A stretch of 64,000 nt of DNA, from assembly GCA_035493515.1 (NCBI GenBank), contig DATJID010000026.1, positions 173 to 64,172 of the forward strand, given 5' to 3'. Under the pieces are notes generated by a model that had not been told where the DNA came from, did no database searches, and saw only the letters and a program-made list of their open reading frames with translations. Every line of letters begins with the position of its first letter. Position 1 is the first letter of the stretch. Shown here one piece after another: positions 1 through 18,324 of this stretch. Origin of the DNA: Candidatus Binataceae bacterium. Its GTDB lineage: Bacteria > Desulfobacterota > Binatia > Binatales > Binataceae. The position numbers and the translations under genes were made by a program.

Positions 1-273
1 CTCCGACGCCACGATGATGTTCATCGCCCAACTCAGGCCGTAAATGAGGTAAACGTAGGCGTAGCCAGGTGGCCCGAACATCACCGCGGTTCGCCTGGTG
101 CGCAGTCCGCGCGCGCTGTGCGCAGCGAGGTCACGTGGCCCGCGATATGCCTCGGCTTCCACGATGCGTCCGGCCGCTTCGCCCTCGGGCGTGCGATGCA
201 CCAGCAGCTTCCCGATACATTCGCGAGCCACCACCAGCACCGAACGGGCATAGAAACCGCGGGCCAGCTTCAT
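1..273 (-). CDS. mpg: DNA-3-methyladenine glycosylase (AAG/Mpg family), first 91 codons only; C-terminus lies beyond the window edge
   Basis: Own translation from ATG at 273-271: [91 protein letters not shown]. The EAY.G..D.A.H and MFGPPG.AYVY.IYG strings are typical of this family. Absent from the ORF track because there is no stop in the window. Its ATG overlaps the pgi stop (ATGA at 270-273). Confidence 0.8.
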
Positions 274-1913: not shown

Positions 1914-1955
1914 TGGTCCGTTCCCCTTTTCCGCCAGTCAGGTTCTGCCGGTGAA

Positions 1956-3041
1956 TCAACTCGCCTTCTTGAGGGCCGCGCTCTTGTCAACGATGCAGGC
2001 CAGGAGGTCGTCCCACGATTTGACGAACGCTTCGGCGCCCTCGCGCTGAAGCTGCCTCGCCAGCGCGTCGATATCCACTCCCGCCCTGATGAACTCGGCC
2101 AGTTCCGCCTCCGCATTGCCGCCATCGTGCGGCAGCATCGCACCAATCTCGCCATGGTCGGCGAGCGCCTTGAGCGTATTCTCAGGCATCGTGTTGACGG
2201 TGTGCGGCGACGCCAGCGACTTCACATAGAGCACGTCGGAAGCCTTGGGATCCTTGGTGCCGGTGCTGGCCCACAGCAGCCGCTGCGAGCGCGCGCCGAA
2301 GTTGAGGAGCCTCAGCCAGCGGTCGGAGCCGAGCACCTCGCGGTAGGCTTTGTAGATGCGTTTGGACATCGCGATGCCGAGGCGATCGTGCAGCGCTGGC
2401 GGCACTTTCTTCGCCGCCGCGACGTCCCATCGGCTGACGAACACGGAGGCGACCGAGCCGACGTGCGGGTTGAGGCCGGCCGCCACGCGGCGCTCGATAC
2501 CGCGAATGTAGGCCTCAGCCGCCGCGAGATACTGCTCGCGCGAGAACAACAGCGTCACGTTGATCGGCACGCCCGCGAAGATCGCCTCTTCGATCGCCGG
2601 CACGCCCTCGCGAGTTCCGGGAATCTTCATGAAGAGGTTCGGACGCGCGCCGCGCGCGGAGAGTTGTTTCGCCGCATTGATGCTGCCGGCCGTGTCGTAC
2701 GCGAGCTTGGGCGAAATTTCCAGCGAGACCCATCCGTCGACTCCGTTGGTCCGGTCGTGCACGGGGCGAAAGAGGTCGGCGGCGCGCGTCAGGTCTTCGA
2801 GCGCGAGTTCGAAGAACAGCGCCTCGCCCTCCTTGCGAGCGGCGGTTTTTTCCCGAATCGCCGCGTCGTAGTCGTTGCTGTTCTTGATCGCCTGGTCGAA
2901 GATGCTCGGATTGGAGGTCAGGCCGGTGATCGACAACTCATCGATGTAGCGCTTGAGCCCGCCGCCGGTAAGCAGCGCCCGCGTGATGTTATCCAGCCAG
3001 AGACTCTGGCCAGCCTCGTGCAGTTTTTGTGTCGCTTTCAT
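1956..3041 (-). CDS. tal: transaldolase (long, actinobacterial-type form)
   Basis: 361-aa ORF starting MKATQKLHEAGQSLWLDNITR...LTGLTSNPSIF with a FMKIPGT lysine motif. Confidence 0.93.
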   Translation of the reverse strand: MKATQKLHEAGQSLWLDNITRALLTGGGLKRYIDELSITGLTSNPSIFDQAIKNSNDYDAAIREKTAARKEGEALFFELALEDLTRAADLFRPVHDRTNGVDGWVSLEISPKLAYDTAGSINAAKQLSARGARPNLFMKIPGTREGVPAIEEAIFAGVPINVTLLFSREQYLAAAEAYIRGIERRVAAGLNPHVGSVASVFVSRWDVAAAKKVPPALHDRLGIAMSKRIYKAYREVLGSDRWLRLLNFGARSQRLLWASTGTKDPKASDVLYVKSLASPHTVNTMPENTLKALADHGEIGAMLPHDGGNAEAELAEFIRAGVDIDALARQLQREGAEAFVKSWDDLLACIVDKSAALKKAS

Positions 3042-3136
3042 AATTCCTCCCGCTCCTGGTCCGGCGCGCGACGCGCTGGAACAGGGCGAACTGAGTCGCT
3101 CAAGTTTGGGTCGGCTTGACCCGAACGGTTCATAAC

Positions 3137-3183
3137 TTCATTTTCAACTTACGCGTCTTCATTTCAACTCACGTCAACTCACG
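3137..3183. repeat. AT-rich imperfect tandem repeat in the zwf-tal spacer (2.5 units)
   Basis: ttcattttcaacttacg (3137-3153), ttcatttcaactcacg (3158-3173), tcaactcacg (3174-3183). The last unit contains the zwf stop codon (3179-3181). Confidence 0.7.
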
Positions 3184-4555
3184 CGGGCGGGTTGTGCCAG
3201 CCGCCGACTTCCGCGGTCAGCTGCGCGGCTTTGGCCGGACCCCAGGTGCCCGGCTGATATTCCAGCACCGCAGTGGCGTCGCCCAAAATCGGCTGCACGA
3301 TCGCCCACTGCGCCTCGACTGCGTCCTGGCGCGTGAACAACAGATGGTCACCCGCCATAGCGTCACCCAGCAGCCGCTCGTAGGCTTCCATCTCTTCGCC
3401 TTCGGGCCGTTGCACGAGTTTGAGTTCCGTGGCTTCGGAATCCATGTGCTCACCGGGACGCTTGACCTGTGCGCCGACGGCGATTATCACGTCGGGGCCC
3501 AGGCGGAAACGAAAGTAGTTCGCATCCTCCGGACTAAGCTTGCGCAGCGGCGGCCGCTTGAGCGTCACCCTCACCTCGGTGGCGGTCACCGGCATACACT
3601 TGCCGGCACGGATGAAGAACGGCACGCCTTCCCATCGCCATGAATCGATATGCAGGCGCACGGCCGCGAAGGTCTCGACCGTCGAGCCCGATTTGACGCC
3701 TGGCTCCTTGAGATAGCCACTGAACTGTCCGCGCACGAGGTCATCGGGATCCAGCGGCAGGATCGAACGGAAGACCTTGACCTTCTCGTCCTGGATCGAC
3801 TCGGGATACGTGGTCAGCGGCGGTTCCATCGCCAGGTATGCCACGACCTGGAGCAGATGATTCTGCACCACGTCGCGGATCGCGCCGTTGGCGTCATAGA
3901 AAGCGCCGCGGCCCTGTACGCCAAAACTCTCGGCCATCGTGATCTGCACGCTCTCAACGTAGCGCCGATTCCAGATCGGCTCGAGAAAGGAATTGGCAAA
4001 ACGGAACAGTACCAGGTTCTGTACCGGCTCCTGGCCGAGATAGTGATCGATACGAAACACGGCGGACTCGTCAAAGACCTTGTGCAGCGTTACGTTGAGG
4101 GCCTGCGCCGAGGGCAGATCGTGCCCGAATGGCTTTTCGAGGATCACTCGTCCATCGCGCGCGCACCCGGAAGAGCCAAGATTCTCGACCACGGTCGCAA
4201 ACAGACTCGGGGGAATCGCCAGGTAGTGCGTCGGATGCTTCGCGCCGCCCATTGCCTTGAGCAGCGCCGTATACGTCGATGCGTCCTGGTAGTCGCTATC
4301 GATATAGCCCAAGCGCGCGACGAGCCTCCTGAAGGCCTGATCGTCGACGCCGCCGCCATGCTTCTCGATACTCTCTTTGGCGCGGGCGCGCAGTTGATCG
4401 AGATTCCAGCCCGACTTCGCCACCCCGATCACTGGAAATTCCAGATGGCCGCGCCGCGCCATCGCGTGCAACGCCGGGAAAATCTTCTTGTAGGCGAGGT
4501 CGCCGCTGGCGCCAAAAAACGCCAGTGCATCGGAGTGCGGGGCCCCGGTGTTCAT
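3179..4555 (-). CDS. zwf: glucose-6-phosphate 1-dehydrogenase
   Basis: 458-aa ORF with [16 protein letters not shown] (NADP site) and RIDHYLGQE (active-site motif). Its ATG overlaps the gnd stop (ATGA at 4552-4555). Confidence 0.95.
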
Positions 4556-5568
4556 GACTTCTTCTCCACGTGGCCGCCGAACTCGTAGCGCATCGCCGAC
4601 AGCATCTTATCGGCGAAGTCGGCCGCGCCTCGCGAGCTGAAGCGCTCGTACAGCGCCGCCGTCAGCACCGGCGCCGGCACTCCTTCATCGATCGCCGCAT
4701 CGACGGTCCATCGCCCCTCGCCCGAATCCGAGACCCGGCCGGCAAACTTCGCCAATTCGGGATCGCCCGCCAGCGCATCGGCCGTCAGGTCGAGCAGCCA
4801 CGAGGCGATCACACTGCCGCGGCGCCAAACCTCGGCAATGTCGGTGAGGTTGAAATCGTACTGGTAGAGTTCCGGATCGCGCAGTGGCGTGGTCTCGGCG
4901 TCAGCCACGTGCTGCTGCTTGCCGACGTTGGCATGACGCAGGATGTTCATTCCTTCCGCGTACGCGGCCATCAAACCGTACTCGATTCCGTTGTGCACCA
5001 TCTTGACGAAATGACCGGCGCCGTTGGGCCCGCAATGCAGGTAGCCGTGCTCGGCGGTGGTCGGGGCGGCTTTCTCGCGTGCGGCGGTGCGTGGCGCCGA
5101 GTCGAGCGGCGGTGCGAGCGTGGCGAAAATCGGATCGAGATGTTTCACGATTTCGGGCTCGCCGCCAATCATCTGGCAAAACCCGCGCTCGAGCCCCCAT
5201 ACGCCGCCGCTGGTGCCGGAATCGACGTAGTGGAGGCCCTTAGCACGCAATGCTTTGGCGCGGCGAAGATCATCCACATAGTAAGAGTTGCCGCCGTCGA
5301 CAAGGATGTCGCCCGGCTCGAACCTGCCCGAAAGGTCAGCAAGCGTTTTCTCGACCACCGCCGCCGGCACCATCATCCACGCCACCCGCGGCTTCTTGAG
5401 CTTCGCTTTGAAATCATCCAACGAAGACGCGCCGATCGCACCCTCCTTGGCCAGTGCCTTTACCGCATCGGCACTGACGTCGAAGACCACGCACTCATGA
5501 CCACCGCGCAGGAGACGGCGCACCATGTTGGCGCCCATCCTGCCCAGACCGACCATACCCATCTGCAT
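4552..5568 (-). CDS. gnd: 6-phosphogluconate dehydrogenase, decarboxylating (short ~340-aa form)
   Basis: [19 protein letters not shown] Rossmann N-terminus and DGGNSYY motif. AAGGAG lies 8 nt before the ATG at 5568. The track start at 5589 is an alternative. Confidence 0.9.
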
Positions 5569-5962
5569 TGCTATCGCTCCTTGGATCATAGTTCGCTCGC
5601 CGGCGAAGCGTTGGAATGAAAGTCCTTTGGCGAGCCATTAACGCGAAGATGTGCTGCAACTAACAGTATGCACTGCCTCGGCTCTCATAAAGAACACGGC
5701 CGCACCTTTTCGCGGGCAGGGTTCCAGCCGCCGAAGGCATTATGGTGGACCGACCCGCGCGGCCGCGTTGGTGGGGAATTGCGCGAACGATACCGCCTAT
5801 GGGCTCGCACTCAGAAAATCGTGAATCGTGTTATCTCGACGACCACCCTAGCCATACATACATGCTGGTTCTTCTATTTTGGGATTGCCCGCCCCTCAAA
5901 ACACGTCACAGATTCCCCTTCTTCTACCTCGACACAAAATTATTGCGTAATTTAGGCTAAAT

Positions 5963-5992: not shown

Positions 5993-6071
5993 ACTCTCTA
6001 TGAGGTCGTTGTCGTGCAAGTGGTGGCAAAGGTCACTTTTGTGGCCCTAGAGGAGAGAGGAGGTTATTGGC

Positions 6072-6263
6072 ATGAACTTGAAATGTGGAATTTTGGCAAA
6101 GGCGCGAAAATCCAACCTGGGCCAGACGTTCACGGAATATTCGATCATCCTTTTGTTAGTCGCCGTCGCAGCTTATTCTGCCTACGCGGGATTGGGTTTC
6201 GGCGTCAAAAGCTTTGCGGGCAACGTCGTTACGTTCATCGCCACGGCAGTGGCTGCTCTTTAG
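6072..6263 (+). CDS. flp: Flp/Fap-family type IVb pilin precursor
   Basis: 63 aa. Charged leader, then G/QTFTEYSIILLLVAVAA, which fits the Flp processing motif G/xxxxEY followed by a hydrophobic helix. GAGAGGAGG RBS upstream. Confidence 0.75.
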   Translation: MNLKCGILAKARKSNLGQTFTEYSIILLLVAVAAYSAYAGLGFGVKSFAGNVVTFIATAVAAL

Positions 6264-6382
6264 GGGGGCGCGTAGCGATCGAGCGCCGGGGTCCGCTTCA
6301 CGACTCTATATGGCATCCGGCAGCTTCACGGGGACAGTAGCTGGGTAGCGATAAGAGAAGAGATGGCGGACCGAATGTTGGA

Positions 6383-6414
6383 GGCCGGAGTTTTTCTCCG
6401 GCCTTTTTTCTTTT
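6383..6414 (+). terminator. Rho-independent terminator
   Basis: GGCCGGAG-ttttt-CTCCGGCC perfect 8-bp stem (6383-6403) followed by TTTTTTCTTTT. Confidence 0.7.
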
Positions 6415-6826
6415 GGCTCAAAGAGTCTTTCGAAAAAGCGCTTTTCGTAAGTCCGTCCAGCTGCATGAAGATCCGGTCGGCGATGCATCTGAATAATTCC
6501 GCGGGGTCATCGTCGAATATTTCAGGCGCGGATTTTTTTGGCGGTCATCGCCGCCGCGCCGCGGTTGCTTACTCCTCCCGGCAGCCGAAGTGAGGTACGC
6601 CGCAAGGCGGACCACGAACAGGCGGGCATCGGGGAGCCTCCCCCCTCCCACGATGCCCGCCGTTCCTTTGTCCGGCGGCAGCAATCAACTGTTCTTAGTT
6701 TCGAAATTCACCCGGTGCCTTTTTTATAGCGCGCCGTCTGTTTTCCAGCCCGGCGCGATCAAGTTTGTTTGGTTTTCGCGCGACGCTTCTTGACAGCGCG
6801 GGAGCCGCCACGGCATAGCTGGATGC

Positions 6827-7300
6827 TTGATGTGGCAGAAAAGATGTTTGGTGATCGCTCCGTTTTTGGCTTTCGTGATAACGACGCTGTTGCTCAGTTG
6901 CGGGGGAAGCTCCAACAATACGGCGCCAATTGCCACGTCGACGCCGATAACCATCATAGCGGTGCGGGTTTGCGCCCAAGCTCCATCGACTGGCGCCGCG
7001 TGCACGCAGGCGACATCTGCCGAGGTCGCTCTCAGTACATCGAAATTCCAACTCTACGCTCAGGGTGAATTCAGCTCCAACGGGGTCAGCTCTTTCAACG
7101 ATATCTCGCCCTCGGCGAGTTGGTTCGTGAACAACAGTCTTCTCTTGAGCAACGGCTTGGGTTTTTTCACCTCGGGACCGGTCAAGGGATGTTCGTGCAT
7201 AACGGCGGCCTCCGGGACGGTCGTTAGCCCGCCGGTGCTGATTGGGATTGGTCAATCTCCCTCGCTGTGCAGCCCCTGCCCTGCGTCTCCTCCTTCTTGA
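6827..7300 (+). CDS. lipoprotein with bacterial Ig-like (Big_2-like) domain
   Basis: Signal peptide with lipobox LLLSC. The core FQLYAQGEFSSNGVSSFNDISPSASWFVNNS...GCSCITAASG resembles Big_2 repeats. Confidence 0.55.
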   Translation: MMWQKRCLVIAPFLAFVITTLLLSCGGSSNNTAPIATSTPITIIAVRVCAQAPSTGAACTQATSAEVALSTSKFQLYAQGEFSSNGVSSFNDISPSASWFVNNSLLLSNGLGFFTSGPVKGCSCITAASGTVVSPPVLIGIGQSPSLCSPCPASPPS

Positions 7301-7406
7301 AAGCCTCACAGGGCATCGCGCCGACCTCGGAGCATCGCCGCGACGACATTGAGGAGCTGGGGCCCAGAGTTGAAAAGTTATCCACTATGAGGCGTTTGGG
7401 GGAGAT

Positions 7407-7435
7407 TTGACACCGCTCGGACGGGCCGATAGGGT
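7407..7435 (+). promoter_or_regulatory. candidate sigma70-type promoter of the TetR-led cluster (TTGACA-17 nt-TAGGGT)
   Basis: Perfect -35 hexamer at 7407-7412, 17-nt spacer, TAnnnT -10 at 7430-7435, about 27 nt before the TetR ATG. Confidence 0.45.
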
Positions 7436-7461
7436 CTAATTCTCCTGAGGATTTTGCGGTA

Positions 7462-8112
7462 ATGGAACGACAGGCCCGGCGCGCTCAAGTGTTGCGCCAC
7501 GCCAAGCGGATATTCGCGCGCAAAGGCTATCATCGGACCAATGTCGCTGATATCATCGCCCGCGCTCGCATCGCGCGAGGCACCTTCTACCTCTACTTTC
7601 AAAACAAGAAGGTTCTTTTCGAGGAACTTCTCGCCCAAGTGCTAACCGAGCTTTCACGCCGCATCCAGCGTCTGCGTCCGGACGAGCCCGACCCGGTCAA
7701 TCAACTCCGCGACAACCTCAAGCGGGTGATGAATTTCGTGCTGGCGGAACGCGAATTGACCGACATCCTGCTCAACCATTCAGTTGGTTTTGATCGCGAC
7801 CTCGACTTAAGGATTCTGGAATTCTATCAGCGTATCGCCGACGCCATTCAGCGCTCCCTGGACCTGGGAGTGCAGATGAATATGGTACGTCCCTGCGACA
7901 CGCGGATTGCGGCCTTTTGCATCCTGGGAGGAATCAAGGAAGTGGTCGGCCAGATCGCACGGCGGCGTCCGCGTGAGATCGATTCGCTGGTCGAGGAGAT
8001 TCTGGCCTTTGGACTGGGCGGCGTCGGGCGCCCGGAGTTGCTCGAAGAGGCCCGCCGGCGCGGCGAATTGCAGGTCCCGGCGCGCACTATTTCTGGCTCT
8101 AAAGTAGAATGA
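7462..8112 (+). CDS. TetR/AcrR-family transcriptional regulator
   Basis: N-terminal HTH RKGYHRTNVADIIARARIARGTFYLYFQNKKVLFEELL is a textbook TetR_N signature. Confidence 0.9.
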   Translation: MERQARRAQVLRHAKRIFARKGYHRTNVADIIARARIARGTFYLYFQNKKVLFEELLAQVLTELSRRIQRLRPDEPDPVNQLRDNLKRVMNFVLAERELTDILLNHSVGFDRDLDLRILEFYQRIADAIQRSLDLGVQMNMVRPCDTRIAAFCILGGIKEVVGQIARRRPREIDSLVEEILAFGLGGVGRPELLEEARRRGELQVPARTISGSKVE

Positions 8113-8113
8113 C

Positions 8114-8911
8114 ATGTCAGTTTACGTAACCAGAGCGGGACGCCCCTCCCGCGGCAAAGCCAAGGCCTGCGCCTTCTACGATCTGGACGGCACGCTGGCC
8201 GGGCTCAACCTGCTCCACGCCACCGCCTTCTTCATGACCAACCTGGGTGAGTGGAGTGGCCGCGCCGGCTATCTCGCCCGGCTTGCGCTCAGCCTTCCGT
8301 TGCTCTACATGGCCGAGCGTGACGACCGCCGCCTGCTCAACATGAAGCTGTTCGAGGCCTATAAGGGCGTCTCGCGCGATCGCCTGTGGGAACTCGGCGG
8401 CGAGTACTGCGAACGCGTGCTGATCCGCCATCTCTACCCGCACGCGATCGAAATGCTGGAGGCTAATCGCGCCGTGGGCATCGAGCCGGTGCTAGTGACC
8501 GGGTCACCCGATTTCCTGGTGGAACCGCTTGCGCGCCACCTCAAGATTAAACACTTCGCCGCCAATCGCCTGGTCTACAGCCGCGGACTCGCGACGGGCA
8601 GGATGCTGGAGCCGGTGATGGCGGGTTCAGAGAAATCGGCGTGGTGCGAAAGCTTCGCTGCGCAGCAGCGAATCAATATGGCCGCGTGCTGGGGGTACGC
8701 CGATTCATATTACGACCTGCCTTTTCTCTGCGCGCTGGGGCATCCGGTGGCCGTGAATCCCGACCGCCGCCTGCTCGCAGCCGCGCACAACCGCAAGTGG
8801 CCAATTGTTCGTTTCAGCCATGACGCCGGGTCGGGCCGCGAAGACGCGGCGGACGGCGGGTGGCTGCTGGACTGGCTGGGGAGAGCTACGGATGGCGCGA
8901 CCGGAAGGTAA
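8114..8911 (+). CDS. HAD-superfamily subfamily IB hydrolase (phosphatase-like)
   Basis: FYDLDGTL (DxDxT motif I), VTGSPDF (motif II) and GYADSYYDLPFL (motif IV region). Starts 1 nt after the TetR stop. Confidence 0.8.
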   Translation: MSVYVTRAGRPSRGKAKACAFYDLDGTLAGLNLLHATAFFMTNLGEWSGRAGYLARLALSLPLLYMAERDDRRLLNMKLFEAYKGVSRDRLWELGGEYCERVLIRHLYPHAIEMLEANRAVGIEPVLVTGSPDFLVEPLARHLKIKHFAANRLVYSRGLATGRMLEPVMAGSEKSAWCESFAAQQRINMAACWGYADSYYDLPFLCALGHPVAVNPDRRLLAAAHNRKWPIVRFSHDAGSGREDAADGGWLLDWLGRATDGATGR

Positions 8912-10532
8912 GCTCAAAGAGCTGAAGACCGCCGAACTCAGGCACGAGCCCGGCGCGCGCCGTGACCTGGTGGTCACGCTCAACCGGCGCTCGGCGCCGC
9001 GCCTCATCGCCTATGGCGACGACTTCTGGTACGAGAAGCTGCCCGCCGGCACGCGCGTGATCTATCCGCCGCCGCCGCTGGAGCCGCTGGCCGATCCCGA
9101 TGCCGCGATTCGCTACGCGCTTCTGCGCCCCGAAAACGCCGACCCGCTGTTCGCCCAGCTCAATCCCAACATGCGCGTCACCATCGCGATCGACGACATC
9201 AGCCTGCCGTTGCCCCAGATGCGCCGGCCCGATATCCGCGAGCGCGCGCTCAACATCGTGCTGCAGACGCTGGCCGACTATGGGGTCGACGACGTTCATC
9301 TAATCGTCGCGACCTCGCTGCATCGCCGAATGACCGAGGCCGAGATTCGGCGCATGGTGGGTGAGCGCGCGTTCAAGCAATTCTGGCCCGAGCGGCTGTA
9401 CAACTTCGACGCCGAGAATCGTGCCGAAATCGCGATGCTCGGCAAGACCGATCATGGCGAAGAGGTCTGGCTCTCGCGGCGCGCGGCCGAGTCCGACCTG
9501 TTGCTCTATCTCAATATCAATCTGGTTCCGATGGACGGCGGCCACAAATCGGTCGCGGTCGGCCTCGCTCCCTATCAGAGCCTGCGCCACCATCACAATC
9601 CCGCAACGCTGCGACAGTGCAACTCATACATGGACCCGACCCGCTCGGCGCTGCACAACTCGGCCAACCGGATGGGCCGGCTGGTCAACGAGCACGTCAA
9701 CGTCTTCACCATCGAGACCGCAATCAACAACCAGATGTACGGCGGGATGCTCGATTTCCTGCAAAAGAACGAAGACCGCTTTTCGGATTGGGACCGGATG
9801 CGCCTGAAGGGTTTTCGCTGGACGCTCGGCAACATGTCGGATTCGATGCGCCGCCAGGTGCTCAACCAATACGCCGCGCCCTATTCGATGACCGGTGTAT
9901 GGGCCGGCGAGACCGACGCGGTGCATCGCAAGGCGCTGGCCCGCGTGTTCCAGCAGTATGCGGTGCCGGTCAAGGGCCAGTCCGACGTGCTGATCGTCGG
10001 CGTCCCTTACGTCTGTCCGTACAACGTGAACTCGGTGATGAATCCAGTGCTGGTGCAGTGCACCGGCCTCGGCTACCTGTTCAACATGTTCCGCGGCAAG
10101 CCGCTGGTACGCGAAGGCGGCACCGTGATCATCTGCCATCCGCTGCGCGATCAGTTCCATCCCGAGCATCATCCAAGTTACATCGAGTTCTTCCATCGCT
10201 GCCTGCGCGAGACCACCGACGCCACTGAACTGGAGCGCAACTTCGAGGCCGAGTTCGCGCGCAATCCGACCTACGTTCACATGTACCGCTACGGCCATGC
10301 CTACCACGGCGTGCATCCGTTCTACATGTGGTACTGGGGCGAGCCGGCCCGTCAGCACGTCGGACGGGTGATCGCGGCTGGATGCGAGGAGCCGGAAGTC
10401 GCAACGCGCATGGGATGGGAATCCGCCGACACGCTGGACGAGGCGATCGCGATGGCGACGTCGGATCTGGGGCGCTCGGCCAGTATCACCTATCTCCACT
10501 TACCGCCGCTGGTGATAGCCGATGTCGAATAG
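8892..10532 (+). CDS. LarA-like (lactate racemase N-terminal domain / DUF2088) protein, 546 aa
   Basis: RVTIAIDDISLPLP...VHLIVATSLHRRMTEAEI...LLLYLNINLVPMDGGHKSVAVGL resembles the Lar_N fold motifs. ATG at 8892 chosen (MARPEGK...). The track start at 8805 lies inside the HAD gene. Confidence 0.7.
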   Translation: MARPEGKLKELKTAELRHEPGARRDLVVTLNRRSAPRLIAYGDDFWYEKLPAGTRVIYPPPPLEPLADPDAAIRYALLRPENADPLFAQLNPNMRVTIAIDDISLPLPQMRRPDIRERALNIVLQTLADYGVDDVHLIVATSLHRRMTEAEIRRMVGERAFKQFWPERLYNFDAENRAEIAMLGKTDHGEEVWLSRRAAESDLLLYLNINLVPMDGGHKSVAVGLAPYQSLRHHHNPATLRQCNSYMDPTRSALHNSANRMGRLVNEHVNVFTIETAINNQMYGGMLDFLQKNEDRFSDWDRMRLKGFRWTLGNMSDSMRRQVLNQYAAPYSMTGVWAGETDAVHRKALARVFQQYAVPVKGQSDVLIVGVPYVCPYNVNSVMNPVLVQCTGLGYLFNMFRGKPLVREGGTVIICHPLRDQFHPEHHPSYIEFFHRCLRETTDATELERNFEAEFARNPTYVHMYRYGHAYHGVHPFYMWYWGEPARQHVGRVIAAGCEEPEVATRMGWESADTLDEAIAMATSDLGRSASITYLHLPPLVIADVE

Positions 10533-13500
10533 CAATGGAACTAACGGCAACGCCGCACGCACCGCGATGGCGCCGCTCGAACAGACCCTGCGCCGCCGCC
10601 GCATCCTGCTCACCGGCGCGACCGGCTTTCTCGGCAAGGTCTTCCTCTCGCTGCTCCTGCGCTGGCATCCGGAGGTCGAGCGCGTCTATCTGCTCATCCG
10701 CGGCGACCGGCGCCTCGCGCTTAGTCGTTTGCGCCGCGAAATTCTCGATTCGCCCGTCTTCGGTCCGTTGCGCGAACATCTGGGCGACCGCTTCGACCGC
10801 TACGTCGAAGAAAAACTCACCGTGCTCTGCGGCGACATTACGGAGGAGGATCTGGTTTCCGAAGGCGACGCGCCCGGCCGCGGCGAGATCGACGCCGTGG
10901 TGCATTGCGCCGGGCTGGTCAATTTCGAGGCCTCGCTGGAAAAATCGCTCTCGGTCAACACCACGGGGGTCGCCCATGTGATCGAGTTCTGCCGCAAGCG
11001 CGGCGCAGCCCTGCTTCACGTTTCTACCTGCTACGCCGCGGGCAATGCCGACGGTCATCGTTTCGAGGACGACACGCCGGTCGACTGGTGCCCCAACGGC
11101 CGGCGCAACTTCACGCTGCGGCGCGAGATTCGCGACGCGCTCGCCGCCGTCGCCCGCGTGGAAGCTGAATCCCACGACCAGGTGCGCCAGGCCGACGAGC
11201 TTCACGTGGTCAACGCCGACCCCGACGGCGGTGACGCCCATGAAGCCGCGGCTCAGCGCTGGCGCAAGCGATGGGTCGAGGAGCGGCTGAAGGAGATCGG
11301 CCTGGAGCGCGCGCGTCGATGGGGATGGCCCAACACCTACAGCTACAGCAAGAGCCTCGGCGAACAGTTGGTGTTCGCCGCGCAGGACTCGATCGCGGCG
11401 ACCGTTGCGCGTCCCTCAATTATCGAGAGCGCCCTTCGCGATCCGTTCCCGGGATGGAACCAGGGCGTCAACACCAGCGCGCCGCTGACTTATCTTTCAG
11501 GCCGCGGCTATCGCTTCTACCCGGCCAAAGGCGAACTGGTGCTCGACATCATACCGGTCGATCTGGCGGCGCACGCGATGATTCCGATTCTTGCGGCGCT
11601 GCTCGCCGGGCGCCACAAACCTATCTACCAGCTCTGCACCTCGGACGTGAATCCGCTGCCGATGCGCCGGCTGGTCGAGCTCACCGGGCTCAGCAACCGC
11701 CGCGAGCATCGCCGGGTCGGCGGCCCGATGGGCCGCTTCGCGCCACATCTTGAGGCGGTAGTCGTTTCGCAAAGTACCTACGAACTCGCGAGCCAGACGC
11801 TGCCCGAGTTGCTCAAGAAAGGCGCCGGAGCCGCGCGCACCCTGCTTGGCGAGGATTCCGAACGGGCGAAAAAATTTGAACAAGGGGTCGAGAAGTTTGG
11901 CGCCAATACCGCGATGGCGCGCGAGCTGGTCGAAGTCTATCGACCGTATATCCAGGAGCTGGTTTACACCTTCCACGGCACCAACATTCGCGCGCTCTAC
12001 AAGTCGCTCGCGGCGGCCGACGCCGAACATCATCCCTACGCGCCCGAGCGCGTCGATTGGGCGGATTACTGGATCAACGTGCATTTGCCGGGGCTGCGCC
12101 GGCACATCTTCAGCTCGCTCGATCTTCACACGCGCGGCCGCCCCACGGCTCCGGCGCGTCATCGTACGCTGACCGAGATGCTGGACCGCGCCGCCGAGCG
12201 TTACGGCTCGCGGCCGGCGCTGGTCGCGCGCCCGCCCTCGGGCGAGCGTGTCACGACGACCTACCGCGAGTTGCGCGACAGCTCGCATCGCGCCGGACTG
12301 CTGCTCGGGATGCGTGGGGTCAAGACCGGCGACCGGGTGCTGCTCATCGGCGAAAACTCCCCCGAGTGGGTGCTCGCGTACTTCGCGATTCTCGCCGCCG
12401 GCGCCGTCGCGGTGCCGCTGGACCATCTGATTTCGCCCGAGGAGCTCGCGCCGATCTGCCGCATCGCCACGCCTGCGGCGGCGCTGTGCTCGGCGGACGT
12501 AGCAAAACGCCTGGGCAATGCACTGGCCGAGATGGACGGCGACATCGTCGAGCTCGAGTTTACGGAACTAAGCCGTCCGTTCGTCCTCAAGGGACGGCCT
12601 GACGCGCGGCCCGCCCCCGAGCGCAAGACGCTCGCTTCCATCGTCTTCACCTCGGGCACCACCGGTGCGCCCAAGGGCGTGATGCTGACGCACGGGAATT
12701 TCGCCGCCGAAGTGGCGATGCTCGCACGGGTCTTTACGCTCGATTCGTCTGACGTGGTACTCTCGCTGCTTCCGCTCCATCACACCTTCGAATTTACCTG
12801 CGGGATGCTGTTGCCGCTCGCGCTCGGCGCGACCGTGGTCTATCCGCTCGGCGTGGACGCCGCTAGCCTCGCGCGTACACTGGCCGACGTGCGGCCGACG
12901 GCGGTGGTCGGAGTGCCCGCGCTGTGGGAAGCGGTTCATCGCCGCATCGTTGATGGTGTCGAAGCGCAGGGGCCGTTCCTCCACGCGCTGTTCGATCGGC
13001 TGCGCGATCTCAACCGCAGGTTCGATCGCGAATGGGGTCTCAACGCCGGCGCGATGCTTTTTCGCCAGGCCCATACCGCGCTTGGCGGACGGCTGCGGCT
13101 CGCCGTGAGCGGTGGGGCCGCGCTACCTCAGCGCGTCGCCAGCTTTTTCAATGACCTGGGCATCCGGCTGCTTGAAGGATACGGCCTGACCGAGGCGGCG
13201 CCCGTGCTGAGCGTCGCGCGTCCGGACGAGCCGATGGCTCCCGGGTCGGTCGGCAAGCCGCTCAACGGGGTCGAGATAAAGCTCGCCTCCAGCGGCGACG
13301 GCGCGGTGGGCGAAATCCTGGCGCGCGGGCCGAACGTGATGGCGGGGTACTACCACAACAAGGCCGCCACCGACGAGGTGCTGCACGACGGATGGCTGCG
13401 CACGGGCGATCTCGGCCGCCTCGACGAAGACGGACGGCTCTATATCGTGGGCCGCGCCAAGGACGTGATCGTCGATTCCGGCGGCAACAATATTTACATC

Positions 13501-14943
13501 GACGAACTCGAAGAGGTTTATGGCCATTCCTCGTATATCAAGGAACTTGCGATCGTAGGCTTGAAAGTTGGCCAAGGTGAGCAGGCCGCCGCGTTAGTCG
13601 TGCCCGCCTACGCGCGCGGAGAAAGCCGCCGCGCCGTCGAAGATAACCTGCGCACCCATTTTGAGAAAGTCGGCGCCGGACTCAGCCCGCACAAACGTAT
13701 CCGCATCCTGCGCTTCACCGACGCCGAGCTTCCGCGCACTCGCACGCGCAAGGTCATACGCCTCGAGGTCGCAAAAACGCTGGAGCGGATGCTCGAAACC
13801 CACGCCCAGGAGCGCGCGGCAGTCAGCTCCGAGGTCGAACCGTGGCTCGCCCAGGCGCTGGCGCAGGTCTCCAGCGGCATCGAGAGCATCACGCCCGCGA
13901 CCCGGCTCATCGAGGACCTCGGCCTCGACTCGCTGGCGATGGCCGAGCTGGCCGAGCATATCGCAGCGCATGCCGAACGCGAGCTGAGCCCTGCGCAGCT
14001 CGGCGATCTCCGCACCGTCGATGATCTGCAACGCGCCGTGGGCCAGGGACAGAACCGCCCTCGCCTGCCGTCGTACGCGCGCTTTGCGGAGCCGTTCACT
14101 CCGGCCCTGCCCGGCGCGCTCAAGCGCCTGGGCGAAGCGGCGTTTCGTGGCGCCCAGCGCCTCGCGTTCGACGGATGGTTGCGGCCGCGCGTACTGGGGC
14201 GCGGCAACGTTCCCGCCAACCGCAATTTCCTGGTGGTGGCCAATCACGCCAGCCATCTCGACTTCGCGCTCGCCAGCTATGCGCTGGGCGCGCCGGGCCG
14301 CGAACTGGTCGTGCTCGCCGCCAAGGATTATTTCTTCAATACCAATGCGCGCCGTTTCGTGGTCAGCAACTTCACCCGCCTCATTCCGTTCGATCGCGAG
14401 CGCGCCCAGCTCGACTCGCTCGACGACGCCATAGACGAACTCGAAGCCGGCCGCAGTGTGCTGATGTTTCCCGAGGGCACGCGCTCACCCGACGGCGCAA
14501 TCCATGAATTCAAAAGCGGCGCCGGCTACCTGGCGCTGCGCGGCGGATGTGACGTGCTCCCGGTCCGCATCAGCGGAACTTATGAGGTTCTGGGCAAAGG
14601 CAGCATCATCCCCCATCGCCGCCCGGTCGAGGTCCGAATCGGTCGCGTCATTACCAATGCCGAGTTGCGCGCGCTCGCTGACAATGCCGAGGGCACCGGC
14701 GCCTATCGCAAGCTCGCCGACGCGATGCGCGCCGCGGTGCTGGAACTGGGAGAGCGGATACTTTCCTCAGGCACAGCCAAGCGCACACGGCGCACGCACG
14801 CCGCGCCCGGCGGCGATGGCGGCGGCGCCGCCGAAGCCCCGGCCGAAACCGCTCCGCCGGCGGACGCGGCGCCCGAGGAGCCGCGGACCGCAAGTCGGCC
14901 GCGCCGGAACTCCGCACGCGCCAATCGGCGAGCCAAGGGCTGA
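10522..14943 (+). CDS. multidomain lipid enzyme: fatty-acyl reductase + acyl-AMP/CoA ligase + carrier protein + PlsC-type acyltransferase (ElbD-like)
   Basis: 1473 aa. Motifs TGATGFLGK and YSYSK (reductase), TSGTTGAPKG and GYGLTE (adenylation), GLDSL (phosphopantetheine Ser), NHASHLD and FPEGTRS (acyltransferase). ATG overlaps the preceding gene by 11 nt. Confidence 0.9.
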   Translation: MSNSNGTNGNAARTAMAPLEQTLRRRRILLTGATGFLGKVFLSLLLRWHPEVERVYLLIRGDRRLALSRLRREILDSPVFGPLREHLGDRFDRYVEEKLTVLCGDITEEDLVSEGDAPGRGEIDAVVHCAGLVNFEASLEKSLSVNTTGVAHVIEFCRKRGAALLHVSTCYAAGNADGHRFEDDTPVDWCPNGRRNFTLRREIRDALAAVARVEAESHDQVRQADELHVVNADPDGGDAHEAAAQRWRKRWVEERLKEIGLERARRWGWPNTYSYSKSLGEQLVFAAQDSIAATVARPSIIESALRDPFPGWNQGVNTSAPLTYLSGRGYRFYPAKGELVLDIIPVDLAAHAMIPILAALLAGRHKPIYQLCTSDVNPLPMRRLVELTGLSNRREHRRVGGPMGRFAPHLEAVVVSQSTYELASQTLPELLKKGAGAARTLLGEDSERAKKFEQGVEKFGANTAMARELVEVYRPYIQELVYTFHGTNIRALYKSLAAADAEHHPYAPERVDWADYWINVHLPGLRRHIFSSLDLHTRGRPTAPARHRTLTEMLDRAAERYGSRPALVARPPSGERVTTTYRELRDSSHRAGLLLGMRGVKTGDRVLLIGENSPEWVLAYFAILAAGAVAVPLDHLISPEELAPICRIATPAAALCSADVAKRLGNALAEMDGDIVELEFTELSRPFVLKGRPDARPAPERKTLASIVFTSGTTGAPKGVMLTHGNFAAEVAMLARVFTLDSSDVVLSLLPLHHTFEFTCGMLLPLALGATVVYPLGVDAASLARTLADVRPTAVVGVPALWEAVHRRIVDGVEAQGPFLHALFDRLRDLNRRFDREWGLNAGAMLFRQAHTALGGRLRLAVSGGAALPQRVASFFNDLGIRLLEGYGLTEAAPVLSVARPDEPMAPGSVGKPLNGVEIKLASSGDGAVGEILARGPNVMAGYYHNKAATDEVLHDGWLRTGDLGRLDEDGRLYIVGRAKDVIVDSGGNNIYIDELEEVYGHSSYIKELAIVGLKVGQGEQAAALVVPAYARGESRRAVEDNLRTHFEKVGAGLSPHKRIRILRFTDAELPRTRTRKVIRLEVAKTLERMLETHAQERAAVSSEVEPWLAQALAQVSSGIESITPATRLIEDLGLDSLAMAELAEHIAAHAERELSPAQLGDLRTVDDLQRAVGQGQNRPRLPSYARFAEPFTPALPGALKRLGEAAFRGAQRLAFDGWLRPRVLGRGNVPANRNFLVVANHASHLDFALASYALGAPGRELVVLAAKDYFFNTNARRFVVSNFTRLIPFDRERAQLDSLDDAIDELEAGRSVLMFPEGTRSPDGAIHEFKSGAGYLALRGGCDVLPVRISGTYEVLGKGSIIPHRRPVEVRIGRVITNAELRALADNAEGTGAYRKLADAMRAAVLELGERILSSGTAKRTRRTHAAPGGDGGGAAEAPAETAPPADAAPEEPRTASRPRRNSARANRRAKG
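10600..11631 (+). other. domain: NAD(P)-binding fatty-acyl reductase (NAD_binding_4-like)
   Basis: GxxGxxG at 10612-10635; YxxxK (YSYSK) at 11338-11352. Confidence 0.8.
12163..13761 (+). other. domain: AMP-dependent synthetase/ligase
   Basis: TSGTTGAPKG at 12649-12678; later EGYGLTE, TGDLG and a PRTRTRKV C-terminal lysine motif. Confidence 0.85.
13834..14037 (+). other. domain: acyl/peptidyl carrier (PP-binding)
   Basis: LIEDLGLDSLAMAEL; the predicted phosphopantetheinyl Ser codon is tcg at 13930-13932. Confidence 0.75.
14194..14601 (+). other. domain: PlsC/AGPAT-type acyltransferase
   Basis: HxxxxD box NHASHLD at 14242-14262; FPEGTRS block downstream. Followed by an Ala/Pro/Arg-rich tail. 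Confidence 0.8.
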
Positions 14944-15102
14944 GCGCGCGCGTCATCAGCCCAGGCGCCGGCGCCCCTGTGGACCGCTGCATTTTCAGCG
15001 GTTAGCAGGTTCGCGCCGATGAGCTAAGCTGAGAGTCGACGGACGCACGAGGGTGCCGCGGCGACCGCGCATCGTCACCGGAGCGCGCACCTTCGTCAAA
15101 CG

Positions 15103-15636
15103 ATGGATTGGTTCAGCAAACGCCCCGATCATCAGAGCCACGTGGCGCGAAACCGAGGCCGTCCCTCAGTCACCGAAATTTCTCCTGGCCTGCTGGTTGG
15201 CGAATTTCCTCGTCCTGAGGACATCGCCTGGCTCAAGTCGGAGTTCGGCGTGACCGCCATCCACAATCTCCAGGATGACGAAGACTTGACGCTCAACGGA
15301 CTGCGCGAGCGCGAGCTTGCGGAGGCGTGCCGCTTGAGCGAGATGAAATTCGTCCGCACACAGATCCAGGATGGCAGTGCGGACGCGATGGCCGAGCGGC
15401 TCGACGATACGTTGGAGGCTCTTGCCAGCCTCATCGGCGATGGCGAGCGGGTTTACCTGCACTGCAATGCGGGTCTCAATCGCGCGCCGACGCTGGCGAT
15501 CGCGTACTTGCGCGCGCATGGCAAAATGTCACTCGACGAGGCCTGCGCCCACGTCAAGGCGCGTCGCACCTGCGGCCCATTCATGACGATTTTGGAGGAC
15601 TACTTCGGACCGCGCCATCACAAGCCCGGCCAATGA
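15103..15636 (+). CDS. dual-specificity (Cys-based) phosphatase-family protein
   Basis: 177 aa. ISPGLLVGEFP entry motif, an upstream acid (IQDGSAD) and the catalytic loop VYLHCNAGLNRAPT (HCxxGxxR). Confidence 0.8.
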   Translation: MDWFSKRPDHQSHVARNRGRPSVTEISPGLLVGEFPRPEDIAWLKSEFGVTAIHNLQDDEDLTLNGLRERELAEACRLSEMKFVRTQIQDGSADAMAERLDDTLEALASLIGDGERVYLHCNAGLNRAPTLAIAYLRAHGKMSLDEACAHVKARRTCGPFMTILEDYFGPRHHKPGQ

Positions 15637-15709
15637 GCCGGTTGCGCGGACGAGCCGCGACGCAGCGACGCGCGCGCGCGAGCGCTGGCTGCGGCTTTGC
15701 GCCTGGGGC

Positions 15710-16414
15710 GTGCATCTATACACCGCGCTCGGCGCGATCGCCGGCCTGGTTTCAATCGATTGCGCCGCGCGCGGCGATTTTCGCGCGAGCTTCATCGCGA
15801 TGGCGGTCGCCACCGCGATTGATTCCAGCGACGGTCCGCTCGCGCGCCTGCTCGAAGTGCGCCGGCGCATCCCGCACTTCGACGGCGCATTGCTCGACAA
15901 CATCGTCGACTACCTGACCTACGTGCTCGCTCCGGTCTTCTTGATGCTGCGCGCGGGAATTCTCGAGCCTGGGCTCGGCGGATTTCTCGTCGGCGGCTTT
16001 GCGATGCTGGCAAGCGGCTACGGCTTTTGCCATGTCGAGGCCAAGACCGACGATCATTACTTCCGCGGTTTTCCTTCGTACTGGAACCTGGTCGCGTTTT
16101 ACCTCTATTGTCTTGGCGTCGGCACGCTCGCCGGCACGATCGTCGTTGCGGTGTTCGCGGTGATGGTGTTCGTGCCGATCAAATACATCTATCCGAACCG
16201 TACTGGGCCGCTGCGTGCCGTTACTCTAACGCTGGCGATCGCCTGGGGGATAGTCACGCTCGCGCTGCTGGCCGAGTTGCCCGCTAATCATCCCGTATTA
16301 CTCTTCGCATCGCTGTCGTTCATCACTTATTACCTGGTCGCCTCGTTCATCCTGCACGCGCGCGCGGCGCTGAAACTTCGGCGTTACCGGTCCGGCGGCG
16401 CGGGGCAACATTGA
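15710..16414 (+). CDS. pcs: phosphatidylcholine synthase family (CDP-alcohol phosphatidyltransferase)
   Basis: DSSDGPLARLLEVRRRIPHFDGALLDNIVDYLTYV fits D(x)2DG(x)2AR...G(x)3D(x)3D. VHLYTALG, KTDDHYFRGFPSYWN and FVPIKYIYP match my memory of rhizobial Pcs. The true N-terminus may lie upstream (see findings). Confidence 0.8.
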   Translation: MHLYTALGAIAGLVSIDCAARGDFRASFIAMAVATAIDSSDGPLARLLEVRRRIPHFDGALLDNIVDYLTYVLAPVFLMLRAGILEPGLGGFLVGGFAMLASGYGFCHVEAKTDDHYFRGFPSYWNLVAFYLYCLGVGTLAGTIVVAVFAVMVFVPIKYIYPNRTGPLRAVTLTLAIAWGIVTLALLAELPANHPVLLFASLSFITYYLVASFILHARAALKLRRYRSGGAGQH

Positions 16415-18324
16415 TGACTGGGTCGAGGGGCGGGCCGCATGGTTTCGACCAAGCCGCGGCGCCGAAAAGCGCACGATGGCTCCAGGCGGCCGACGGCGAC
16501 GCGCCGGTATTGCTGATTGCTCCCCACGGCGGCCAGGCCGGCCCGGCCACGCGAGCGCTGCTCAATCCCAAGGTCAACGATCTCTACACCGCCGACATAA
16601 CGCACGAGTTGGCGCAGCGCCTCGGCGCAGGCGCGTTCATCAATTCCGGAATGGATCGCAACCGGCTCGACCTCAACCGTCTAAGCCAGGTGATGAGCGA
16701 GGCGCCGTGGATGCTCGAACTTATCGCCGCGCGCCTGGAGCGAATCGTCGCGCAGCACGGCCGCGCCGTGGTCTTGTTGATTCACGGATGGAACGTTATC
16801 GAGCCGCGCGTCGACGTCGGCATCGGAGTCAAATCGGCCAACGGGGCGCTGCTGCCCGCATGCGGCGCGCACGTATCCGCCAGTGATGGTTTCGTAAACG
16901 GGCCGCTGGTCGACTTTTTCGAAGTGCTCGGCCGTAGCGGTATCGAGCCCACCTTCGGCCTGCGCTATCCGGGAGCCGGTGCCAACAATCTGCTGCAGGC
17001 GTTCACTCAGCGTCATGCGTCGAGCTCGATCGGTACGCTGCGGCGTCTATCCACACTCAACGCGCGCGGCGTACTGGAGGCCGTACAACTGGAACTTTCA
17101 GTGGCGCTGCGGATGCCCGGCCGCTTCCGCACCAAAACCATCGCCGCAATCGCCGAGTCGTTCGCGCGATGCGATCTCGTGGCCGCCGCGTCGACAACCA
17201 ACGGCGCCAAGGCCACGAGCCGCATCGAGATCGTGCGCATGGCTGAGTTTCCCGCGCCGCCGCCTCCTCGAAGCGTGCCGCAAACGTCCGCCGGACCATT
17301 GCGCGTCGGACTGGAGTTTTACGATTCGTCGACGCACATCGGCGCGATGGCGAGTTTCGATCTTGGCTCGGGCGCCGCCGGCGCGCGCGTGATGGTGATG
17401 CTGGGCCGCGAGCGCATCGCGCTCTTCACGGCCGAGGGGCGCGTCGAGCGTACCGCCGAGAGCCTGACGCTGGGTCCGCTGGCTTTGCGAATTCGCGAGG
17501 GGCGCCTGCATTTCGAGTTTGCCGGACCGGCGGTGGTGGTTGATGACGGACGAGCCTATCTAAGCGTCGAACACGCCCTCGCCAAGGCTGCGCTATATGA
17601 GTCGATGGCGCTTCAGGCGGAGTTCGACACCTTGTCGGCGAAGAGCGCGCAGTCAGAATTGCAGACCGAAACGCTCATCGAATCAATAACTCGTCCGGAG
17701 GATGCCGGCCAGGGTGTCTTCGGCCGCGTCACCGGCCATTTCTCAATCACCGGAGAAAAACGTCGGATTCAGGCCGTTGCCCGAGTCGGGCGCTCGCTCA
17801 TCGGAATCGGCAGCGGCGCCTTTAAAGAGCGTCGAATGATGTGGGCCGTGCTGCCCGACGAAGCGTCGCCGCACGCCGTAGAAGCGCGCACGCTAATCGA
17901 CCATGAAGCCGTGGCGCGGGCAAGTTCGCGGGTGCTCGATCGCGGGCGATGGGGCGTCGCCAGCCTCGAGCGGCTTAAGTTCACTGCCGCCGCGCCCAGA
18001 CGCCCGCCGCAGCGAATCAGCGCCATACTGCGGCGGATCGATGACGGCCACGCGCTTGCGCCCCAAATCATGATTGACGGCAGGGTCCACAGCTTCGTGA
18101 TGCTGTCGCGGCCGGGGCCCGCGCAGAGCCGAATCTTGACCTCACTTGGTTTCGCCACATTTCGCGTCGGAAATCATAGCGGAGGTCATAGCGGAAACCT
18201 TCCCGGAGATCTTCACGGCGCCGGGATGTTCGAATACTCGCACCGTATCTCGCTTGCACCGGCTGCGGGGGTGGATCTTCCCGACGCGGTAGATCTAGCC
18301 GACGCTGATAACGGCGAAAGCTAG
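16414..18324 (+). CDS. hypothetical 636-aa protein; N-terminal ~250 aa reminiscent of N-formylglutamate-amidohydrolase-like fold
   Basis: LLIAPHGGQ, DRNRLDLNR and VVLLIHGWN resemble FGase-family blocks (weak, from memory). I do not recognise the C-terminal ~380 aa. ATG shares one base with the pcs stop (TGATG). Confidence 0.5.
   Translation: MTGSRGGPHGFDQAAAPKSARWLQAADGDAPVLLIAPHGGQAGPATRALLNPKVNDLYTADITHELAQRLGAGAFINSGMDRNRLDLNRLSQVMSEAPWMLELIAARLERIVAQHGRAVVLLIHGWNVIEPRVDVGIGVKSANGALLPACGAHVSASDGFVNGPLVDFFEVLGRSGIEPTFGLRYPGAGANNLLQAFTQRHASSSIGTLRRLSTLNARGVLEAVQLELSVALRMPGRFRTKTIAAIAESFARCDLVAAASTTNGAKATSRIEIVRMAEFPAPPPPRSVPQTSAGPLRVGLEFYDSSTHIGAMASFDLGSGAAGARVMVMLGRERIALFTAEGRVERTAESLTLGPLALRIREGRLHFEFAGPAVVVDDGRAYLSVEHALAKAALYESMALQAEFDTLSAKSAQSELQTETLIESITRPEDAGQGVFGRVTGHFSITGEKRRIQAVARVGRSLIGIGSGAFKERRMMWAVLPDEASPHAVEARTLIDHEAVARASSRVLDRGRWGVASLERLKFTAAAPRRPPQRISAILRRIDDGHALAPQIMIDGRVHSFVMLSRPGPAQSRILTSLGFATFRVGNHSGGHSGNLPGDLHGAGMFEYSHRISLAPAAGVDLPDAVDLADADNGES

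Follow-up and report, generated by a model that had tools for sequence, protein, structure and literature searches.

In the stretch of DNA analyzed here (the window, 64 kb of a Candidatus Binataceae genome), the listing of open reading frames (ORFs) places seven genes on the plus strand between positions 7462 and 18324. They encode a TetR regulator (7462-8112; TetR_N of Pfam, E = 6.6e-15), a HAD-IB phosphatase (8114-8911; PF12710, E = 6.7e-30; TIGR01490, 100.2 bits against a cutoff of 98.3), a LarA-like protein (8892-10532 from its ATG start, with an alternative ORF start at TTG 8805; NF052592 and Lar_N), a 1473-residue protein with NAD_binding_4, AMP-binding, PP-binding, and Acyltransferase domains (10522-14943), a DSP cysteine phosphatase (15103-15636; DSPc, PF00782, E = 4.6e-16), a Pcs-like cytidine diphosphate (CDP)-alcohol phosphatidyltransferase (15710-16414; five NCBIfam Pcs models, all below cutoff), and a 636-residue protein (16414-18324), for which Pfam and NCBIfam gave no match at default thresholds and two folds were assigned by structure prediction. 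The second to fourth genes are homologs of elbB, elbC, and elbD of the bacterial ether-lipid cluster, and we consider it somewhat probable that the locus as a whole is the Binataceae form of that cluster, in which the last three genes act as a head-group module.

The TetR and HAD genes are separated by a single nucleotide (8113), the HAD and LarA-like genes overlap by 20 nucleotides (8892-8911), the LarA-like and ElbD genes overlap by 11 (10522-10532), and the Pcs-like and 636-residue genes overlap by 1 within TGATG at 16412-16416. The original prediction, made from the sequence of the window, had described the seven same-strand genes, these four tight junctions, and the domain content of the proteins; we found the genes and junctions as described in the ORF listing, and its domain calls were upheld by Pfam and NCBIfam profile searches. 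It had not mentioned two wider gaps, of 159 nucleotides between the ElbD and DSP genes and of 73 nucleotides between the DSP and Pcs-like genes.

On the basis of homology and collinearity, the genes at 8114-14943 are elbB, elbC, and elbD. In Myxococcus xanthus, the elbABCDE cluster encodes a NAD epimerase/dehydratase (elbA), a HAD-like phosphohydrolase (elbB), a protein of unknown function (elbC), a protein with FAR-like, acyl-CoA-synthetase, carrier, and AGPAT-like domains (elbD), and a further NAD epimerase/dehydratase (elbE) (PMC9131029, PMC13012113), and deletion of elbD blocks the formation of both alkyl and alkenyl ether lipids (PMC9131029). A locus of Corallococcus terminator (L093) carries, in the published elbABCDE order, genes for an epimerase, a HAD protein, a Lar_N protein, a four-domain ElbD, and an epimerase. 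The window proteins are 36% (HAD), 54% (ElbC), and 39% (ElbD) identical to their counterparts at this locus, the last over the full length of the protein (1476 columns) and with the same order of domains, in agreement with the ElbD-like fusion that had been claimed. In the window ElbD, the Pfam domains follow one another as NAD_binding_4 (residues 30-353), AMP-binding (554-944), PP-binding (1108-1169), and Acyltransferase (1223-1351), and the translation preserves the motifs of the reductase (GATGFLG, YSYSK), the adenylating domain (TSGTTGAPKG, GYGLTE), the carrier (LGLDSL), and the acyltransferase (NHASHLD, FPEGTR). The DxDGT motif of ElbB (FYDLDGTL) is likewise intact.

A scan with the LarA-like protein of the window returned at least 598 related stretches, of which the best 80 loci were kept. 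Among the matches listed, ElbC homologs with 52-59% identity occur in Myxococcota, Acidobacteriota, Planctomycetota, and Gemmatimonadota, where they sit between HAD and ElbD genes; in the window, in L093, and in the Binataceae relatives, the HAD and LarA-like genes lie directly 5' of elbD on the same strand. Since the layout of L093 equals the published order and the homology is collinear, the HAD, LarA-like, and ElbD genes are the elb core as already known and do not form a new combination. The statement in the original prediction that the HAD and LarA-like proteins match no characterized pathway was thus incorrect, as they correspond to ElbB and ElbC of the published elbABCDE cluster (PMC9131029, PMC13012113; verified on L093). 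Nor is the combination wholly undescribed beyond this core: elb-like clusters with CDP-alcohol phosphatidyltransferases and phosphatases are known from sponge symbionts (bioRxiv 10.64898/2026.06.23.733905), and acyltransferase, HAD-phosphatase, and acyl-CoA-synthetase genes have already been recorded as neighbors of LarAH groups 14-16 (PMC7583248).

Comparison with these systems delimits what is particular to the window. It shares with M. xanthus elbABCDE (MXAN_1531-1527; MIBiG BGC0000871) the order and strand of the HAD, LarA-like, and ElbD genes and their overlapping junctions; it differs in lacking elbA and elbE, in the TetR gene that leads it, in the DSP, Pcs-like, and 636-residue fusion genes that follow, and in its Binataceae lineage. 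Elb-like clusters have been described from over 150 organisms, for the most part Acidobacteriota and Proteobacteria, with variable neighbors (bioRxiv 10.64898/2026.06.23.733905). The families of sponge symbionts (Acidobacteriota, Poribacteria) in the same preprint resemble the window in combining an elbD/elbB core with variable neighbors, including CDP-alcohol phosphatidyltransferases and a phosphatase, and many of them have no elbE. They belong, however, to other phyla, and the preprint contains no LarA/ElbC link, Pcs-type enzyme, or FGase-AttH fusion.

Judged by its sequence, ElbC is a protein of the LarA superfamily. It matches NF052592 ("NPN-dependent hydroxyacid isomerase, LarAH14/15/16 family") with 840.1 bits over positions 2-520 of 520, above the cutoff of 740. 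When aligned to 9q2u, a solved single-histidine homolog, through the His in SLHRR, the Lys in GGHK, and the His in RHHH, ElbC keeps the equivalents of the catalytic His108 and of the cofactor-binding Lys184 and His200 and has Val at the position of His174, so that a single catalytic histidine is left. This is the residue pattern of the group 14/15 rows in Dataset S2 of the LarA work, in which Asp72, His108, Lys184, and His200 are kept and His174 and Lys298 are not; the data set includes Anaeromyxobacter proteins plainly similar in sequence to the window ElbC. Groups 14 and 15 are described in the LarA papers as having no equivalent of the catalytic His174, and their authors suggest that proteins without it may perform another hydride-mediated reaction. 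Dependence of ElbC on the nickel-pincer cofactor (NPN) may presumably be assumed from this kinship.

Table S1 of that work gives as neighbors of groups 14-16 COG0204 (1-acyl-glycerol-3-phosphate acyltransferase), COG0560 (phosphoserine-phosphatase-like), COG1022, and COG3320 (thioester reductase), and the association of the elbC-type gene was therefore already on record. Compared with LarAH14/15/16 (Desguin et al. 2020, PMC7583248), ElbC thus passes the family cutoff and shares both the residue pattern and the recorded neighbors; those groups have no assigned substrate, and we did not find a link to ether lipids in the LarA literature. In the ether-lipid literature that we found, elbC is not identified as encoding a LarA homolog, lipids go unmentioned in the LarA papers, and a search for literature on the nickel-pincer cofactor together with lipids returned nothing relevant.

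Downstream of elbD, the phosphatase matches PF00782 with 59.3 bits (cutoff 33.5) and has an intact HCx5R loop (HCNAGLNR), which aligns to the active site of LSF2. Among proteins of solved structure, the phosphatase is most closely related to the glucan phosphatases LSF2 and SEX4 of plants (E = 3e-17), and no PTPMT1-type phosphatidylglycerophosphate (PGP) phosphatase was among its 60 best solved relatives. We had considered the protein as a PTPMT1-type PGP phosphatase, an assignment that we dropped for want of specific evidence, given that glucan phosphatases head the list of solved relatives.

The following gene encodes a protein matched by five NCBIfam Pcs models at E = 2e-54 to 1e-36, the next family following at 1.8e-6, so that the claimed Pcs-type transferase stands as to family type. 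All five scores (123-185 bits) are below the equivalog cutoffs of 300-440, the best model, NF045886, reaching 184.7 bits against 440. The translation contains a Pcs-like motif DGx2ARx12Gx3Dx3D, read as DGPLAR-LLEVRRRIPHFD-GALLDNIVD, and its 12-residue spacing is what we take, from work on Sinorhizobium meliloti, to be a mark of Pcs. A PDB sequence search with the protein gave no significant match. Like Pcs of Sinorhizobium, Legionella, Pseudomonas, and Borrelia, the window protein matches the models over their full length, is of similar size, and carries the same motif; unlike them, it stays under all cutoffs, lacks about 18 N-terminal profile positions, and is always paired with a cysteine phosphatase and the 636-residue protein.

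A true Pcs reaction requires no phosphatase partner. The two enzymes might instead form a synthase/phosphatase pair of the kind known for PgsA with PGP phosphatase or for phosphatidylinositol phosphate (PIP) synthase with PIP phosphatase, the Pcs-like protein coupling a phosphorylated alcohol and the DSP trimming it, so that the head group would not be choline. Besides the sub-cutoff Pcs scores, the fact that in nearly all Binataceae loci the DSP gene precedes the Pcs-like gene and the activity of the closest solved DSP relatives, which dephosphorylate carbohydrates and not proteins, would fit such a pair, and the invariance of the phosphatase partner keeps this explanation alive. On the other hand, the E values of the Pcs models are better than those of all other CDP-alcohol transferase families by some 48 orders of magnitude, the motif spacing is presumably of the Pcs type, and PTPMT1-type enzymes do not appear among the solved DSP relatives. 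We regard the pair as an unlikely explanation.

The 636-residue protein was modeled with AlphaFold (AF2) from 35 homologs, with a predicted local distance difference test (pLDDT) of 80 and a predicted template modeling score (pTM) of 0.84. The model suggests an FGase/amidase-like N-terminal domain at about residues 20-255, followed by an AttH/CrtC-like double barrel at about residues 295-615. Foldseek matched the C-terminal half to Fsa2 (6e-9), AttH (5e-7), kievitone hydratase (6e-7), and 25-phosphosteroid lyase (1e-6) and the N-terminal half to N-formylglutamate amidohydrolase (1.6e-4) and also to an amidase-3 enzyme. Weak Pfam matches within the family point in the same direction (FGase in 28 of 35 members, DUF7064 in 25 of 35), and a PDB sequence search with the family gave no significant match. 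Among the positions invariant in the 35 homologs are those of PHGG, DRN, DLNR, HGWN, and E227. Compared with AttH/CrtC-like enzymes (Fsa2, kievitone hydratase, 25-phosphosteroid lyase) and N-formylglutamate amidohydrolase, the folds of the C- and N-terminal domains match, whereas identity is only 9-13%, the catalytic residues cannot be mapped, and the fusion of the two folds was seen in Binatia only. Since the AttH/CrtC/25-phosphosteroid-lyase fold binds hydrophobic substrates, the modeled fold would be consistent with a lipid theme for this protein as well.

The family is narrowly distributed. An exhaustive profile search returned only 340 clusters among 1.84 billion representatives, and relatives with 41-90% identity were found only in metagenome-assembled genomes of soil, peat, and groundwater that bear the name Candidatus Binataceae or "delta proteobacterium." A genome-locus search with one second-tier relative found no loci; an alignment of such distant members did retrieve loci, all of them from Binatia, evident mislabels aside. 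In the Binatia outside Binataceae (L122-L170), the homologs are about 520-575 residues long and lie beside a ketopantoate-reductase-like gene (e.g., L127, 6960-9677), and no Pcs-type motif was found within 8 kb of them.

Conservation of the whole arrangement was assessed with back-translated motif searches, which diverged copies can escape, as happened with one locus (L019) that was recovered by reading its ORFs. The ElbC motif lies 5' of the 636-residue gene in 25 of the 29 Binataceae loci with full flanks, L019 being the 26th by ORF reading, and this same-strand adjacency spans the full range of 41-90% identity of the 636-residue protein. Wherever the flank of a Binataceae locus is long enough, the Pcs-type motif is found directly 5' of the 636-residue gene, and the DSP motif is found upstream in most of these loci. 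The order TetR-HAD-LarA-ElbD-(phospholipase C)-DSP-Pcs-unknown is kept in three loci (L038, L039, and L040), as seen in gene tables of relatives at 47% and 58% identity. The original prediction had made its case depend on synteny in related genomes, and the genes are syntenic in at least 26 of 29 loci.

In the deeper relatives, an extra gene encoding a Zn-dependent phospholipase-C/S1-P1-nuclease-like protein, with a signal peptide and a mature N-terminal Trp, lies between elbD and the DSP gene (L038, 7801-8655; L039, 7670-8611). It is absent in the window (14944-15102) and in the close relatives L001 and L002, where only the 159-nucleotide gap separates the two genes. At one related locus (L006), the elbD frame at 1294-5706 stops after 915 residues, and an additional stretch of about 2.8 kb, containing a 346-residue minus-strand ORF, follows it; this elbD could be disrupted, or the assembly could be in error.

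The same gap sets the trio apart from elbBCD, and the locus might accordingly consist of two units that happen to stand side by side: TetR-elbBCD for an ether or fatty-alcohol-derived core and DSP-Pcs-636 as a separate head-group operon that also serves diacyl lipids, their adjacency reflecting shared ancestry of gene order. In one genome (MFD04434.bin.1.44, contig CAVWLM010000002.1), the two units are indeed split by about 50 kb, with TetR-elbBCD (L042) at about 850 kb, followed by unrelated genes, and the trio (L005) at about 793 kb, adjoining a ParA/Mrp-like gene as in the window and preceded by a thioredoxin/DsbA-like gene. Moreover, no DSP, Pcs, or 636-residue motifs were found within 10 kb in about 58 elbC loci of other phyla, and the 636-residue homologs of other Binatia beside a ketopantoate-reductase-like gene, described above, also fit two separable units. 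Against this stand the same-strand adjacency in at least 26 of 29 loci across such a range of divergence, the phospholipase-C-like gene as the sole gene inserted in deeper branches, and the gap itself, in which no terminator-like site was found. Two independent units thus appear possible to us and, on balance, doubtful.

We favor, with a probability of roughly 0.55, the reading that the cluster is the Binataceae form of the elb ether-lipid cluster, with the trio as a head-group module and a Pcs-type choline lipid as the simplest product. From the observed gene identities, intact motifs, and synteny we infer each of the chemical steps. ElbD would adenylate a fatty acid and load it onto its own carrier domain; its N-terminal reductase would turn part of the acyl pool into aldehyde or alcohol, and its C-terminal PlsC-type domain would acylate a glycerol-phosphate backbone. 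ElbC might borrow a hydride from the C2 hydroxyl of the glycerol, transiently interconverting acyl-glycerol-3-phosphate and acyl-dihydroxyacetone phosphate (acyl-DHAP), and then return it. A transient ketone beside an ester, as in acyl-DHAP, is the chemical state in which AGPS swaps acyl for alkyl. ElbB, as a HAD-IB phosphatase, would take the phosphate off an intermediate, and the trio would most likely attach or remodel a polar head group on a CDP-activated lipid. With choline as the simplest guess for this head group, the result would be an alkyl-acyl phosphatidylcholine, and an ether-linked choline phospholipid is a plausible product of the cluster as judged from its genes. Alkyl ether lipids with phosphocholine head groups have been reported from Acidobacteria of subdivision 4, and such Acidobacteria carry elbD homologs.

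With the FAR-GNPAT-AGPS route (eukaryotic, and myxobacterial MXAN_1676-1674), the cluster shares FAR and acyltransferase domains as in FAR1 and GNPAT/AGPAT, whereas it has neither a FAD-dependent AGPS nor an acyl/alkyl-DHAP reductase; the absence of an AGPS-type enzyme from the cluster had been claimed before and is confirmed here. The hydride step of ElbC, put forward as a hypothesis of our own, would account for both absences. We hold it to be rather unlikely that the stronger form of this idea applies, namely, that ElbC is the ether-forming or redox-neutral C2-oxidizing enzyme of an AGPS-independent route and that the trio constitutes an undescribed head-group pathway on an ether core.

Several points weigh against the favored reading, in addition to the sub-cutoff Pcs scores, the dispensability of a phosphatase for Pcs chemistry, the gap between elbBCD and the trio, the split locus, and the elbC loci of other phyla without the trio. 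In vitro, only adenylation and carrier loading were found for ElbD of M. xanthus (PMC9131029). The cluster contains no elbA, and neither in it nor among the scanned genes of the window is there an elbE or other Epimerase-family gene, elbD being followed by the DSP gene; elbE is required in M. xanthus (PMC9131029), and some published elb-like clusters are also without it (bioRxiv 10.64898/2026.06.23.733905). In Pontiella, elbD homologs are present and ether lipids were undetected. The LarAH14 protein of Frankia was inactive on seven out of seven hydroxy-acid substrates, and none of the genes for NPN synthesis (larB, larC, larE) was detected among the scanned ORFs of the window.

The missing elbE and the Pontiella case would also fit an ElbD homolog that does not serve ether lipids in this lineage, instead providing the fatty aldehydes or alcohols from which wax esters are made or re-acylating lysolipids, with ElbC acting on a soluble hydroxy-acid or on triose phosphate. 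Triose-phosphate and glycolysis genes neighbor those of the single-histidine LarA homologs that, among solved structures, come closest to ElbC, as such a function would lead one to expect. In contrast, elbB, elbC, and elbD are collinear with translational overlaps as in myxobacteria, the catalytic motifs of ElbD are all intact, and sponge-symbiont clusters with only elbD and elbB have been read as ether-lipid clusters too. A function outside ether lipids is for these genes quite improbable in our judgment.

At all Binataceae loci examined for this (L038, L039, L042, L001, and L002), the cluster begins with the TetR gene. Its product is best matched by NF053878, the model of the Bacillus-type fatty-acid regulator FadR, at 58.7 bits and thus under the cutoff of 200; it is probably a FadR-like repressor that would keep the operon silent until an acyl-CoA or lipid binds. 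Upstream of the gene, on the plus strand, the predicted promoter-like sequence TTGACA-17-TAGGGT is present at 7407-7435 (TTGACA at 7407-7412, TAGGGT at 7430-7435). A consensus promoter scan reported none in the region, because TAGGGT shares just 3 of its 6 positions with TATAAT. In the six aligned Binataceae upstream regions, a TTTGAC core is invariant, and the -10-like box is kept in five, with single substitutions in two. About 22 nucleotides upstream of the -35 lies a box, GTTATCCAC (7377-7385, plus strand), which is kept in 5 of the 6 aligned promoter regions and agrees with the DnaA-box consensus at 8 of 9 positions. GTTATCCAC may be the TetR operator or the site of another protein; no inverted repeat fit to be an operator was found in 7310-7465.

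The approximately 1.1 kb 5' of the TetR gene (6340-7461) contains only unconvincing Arg-rich ORFs and is Rfam negative, in line with the zero Rfam matches across the whole window. Terminator-like sites occurred at chance level only. The GC content is 57% over 6001-8000, lower than that of the cluster, which at 64-67% is near that of the remaining window. Since the GC content of the cluster resembles that of the window and its gene order is conserved in the family, we rejected the possibility of a horizontally acquired island. Directly upstream of the cluster region, on the minus strand, lies a pentose-phosphate block (270-5589) with genes for phosphoglucose isomerase, transaldolase, glucose-6-phosphate dehydrogenase, and a 6-phosphogluconate-dehydrogenase-like protein. 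Approximately 20 kb from the cluster, a gene for a PF04185 "Phosphoesterase" protein of the non-hemolytic phospholipase C/acid phosphatase family (38901-40433, minus strand, E = 2e-67) and a divergent APH-family kinase gene (40659-41741, plus strand) form a pair that represents a second phospholipid head-group theme.

Taken together, the elb core is known, and what is new here is its occurrence in the Binataceae lineage, the regulator, and the trio with its Binatia-restricted fusion; we found no paper on ether lipids of Binatia. How the alkyl ether bond is formed in the ElbD route and which substrate LarA groups 14-16 act on are both open questions, and both concern the conserved pair elbC-elbD. 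The locus offers a compact operon without elbA and elbE for testing this pair, and ElbC as an ether-forming or C2-oxidizing enzyme would, if true, provide the first substrate for LarA groups 14-16. For lipid enzymology, the fusion of FGase- and AttH-like domains, encoded next to a Pcs-type enzyme, provides a new target. The genomic potential for ether lipids now also reaches Binataceae, an abundant uncultured lineage of soil and peat, and this bears on the search for the sources of the bacterial ether lipids used as environmental proxies.

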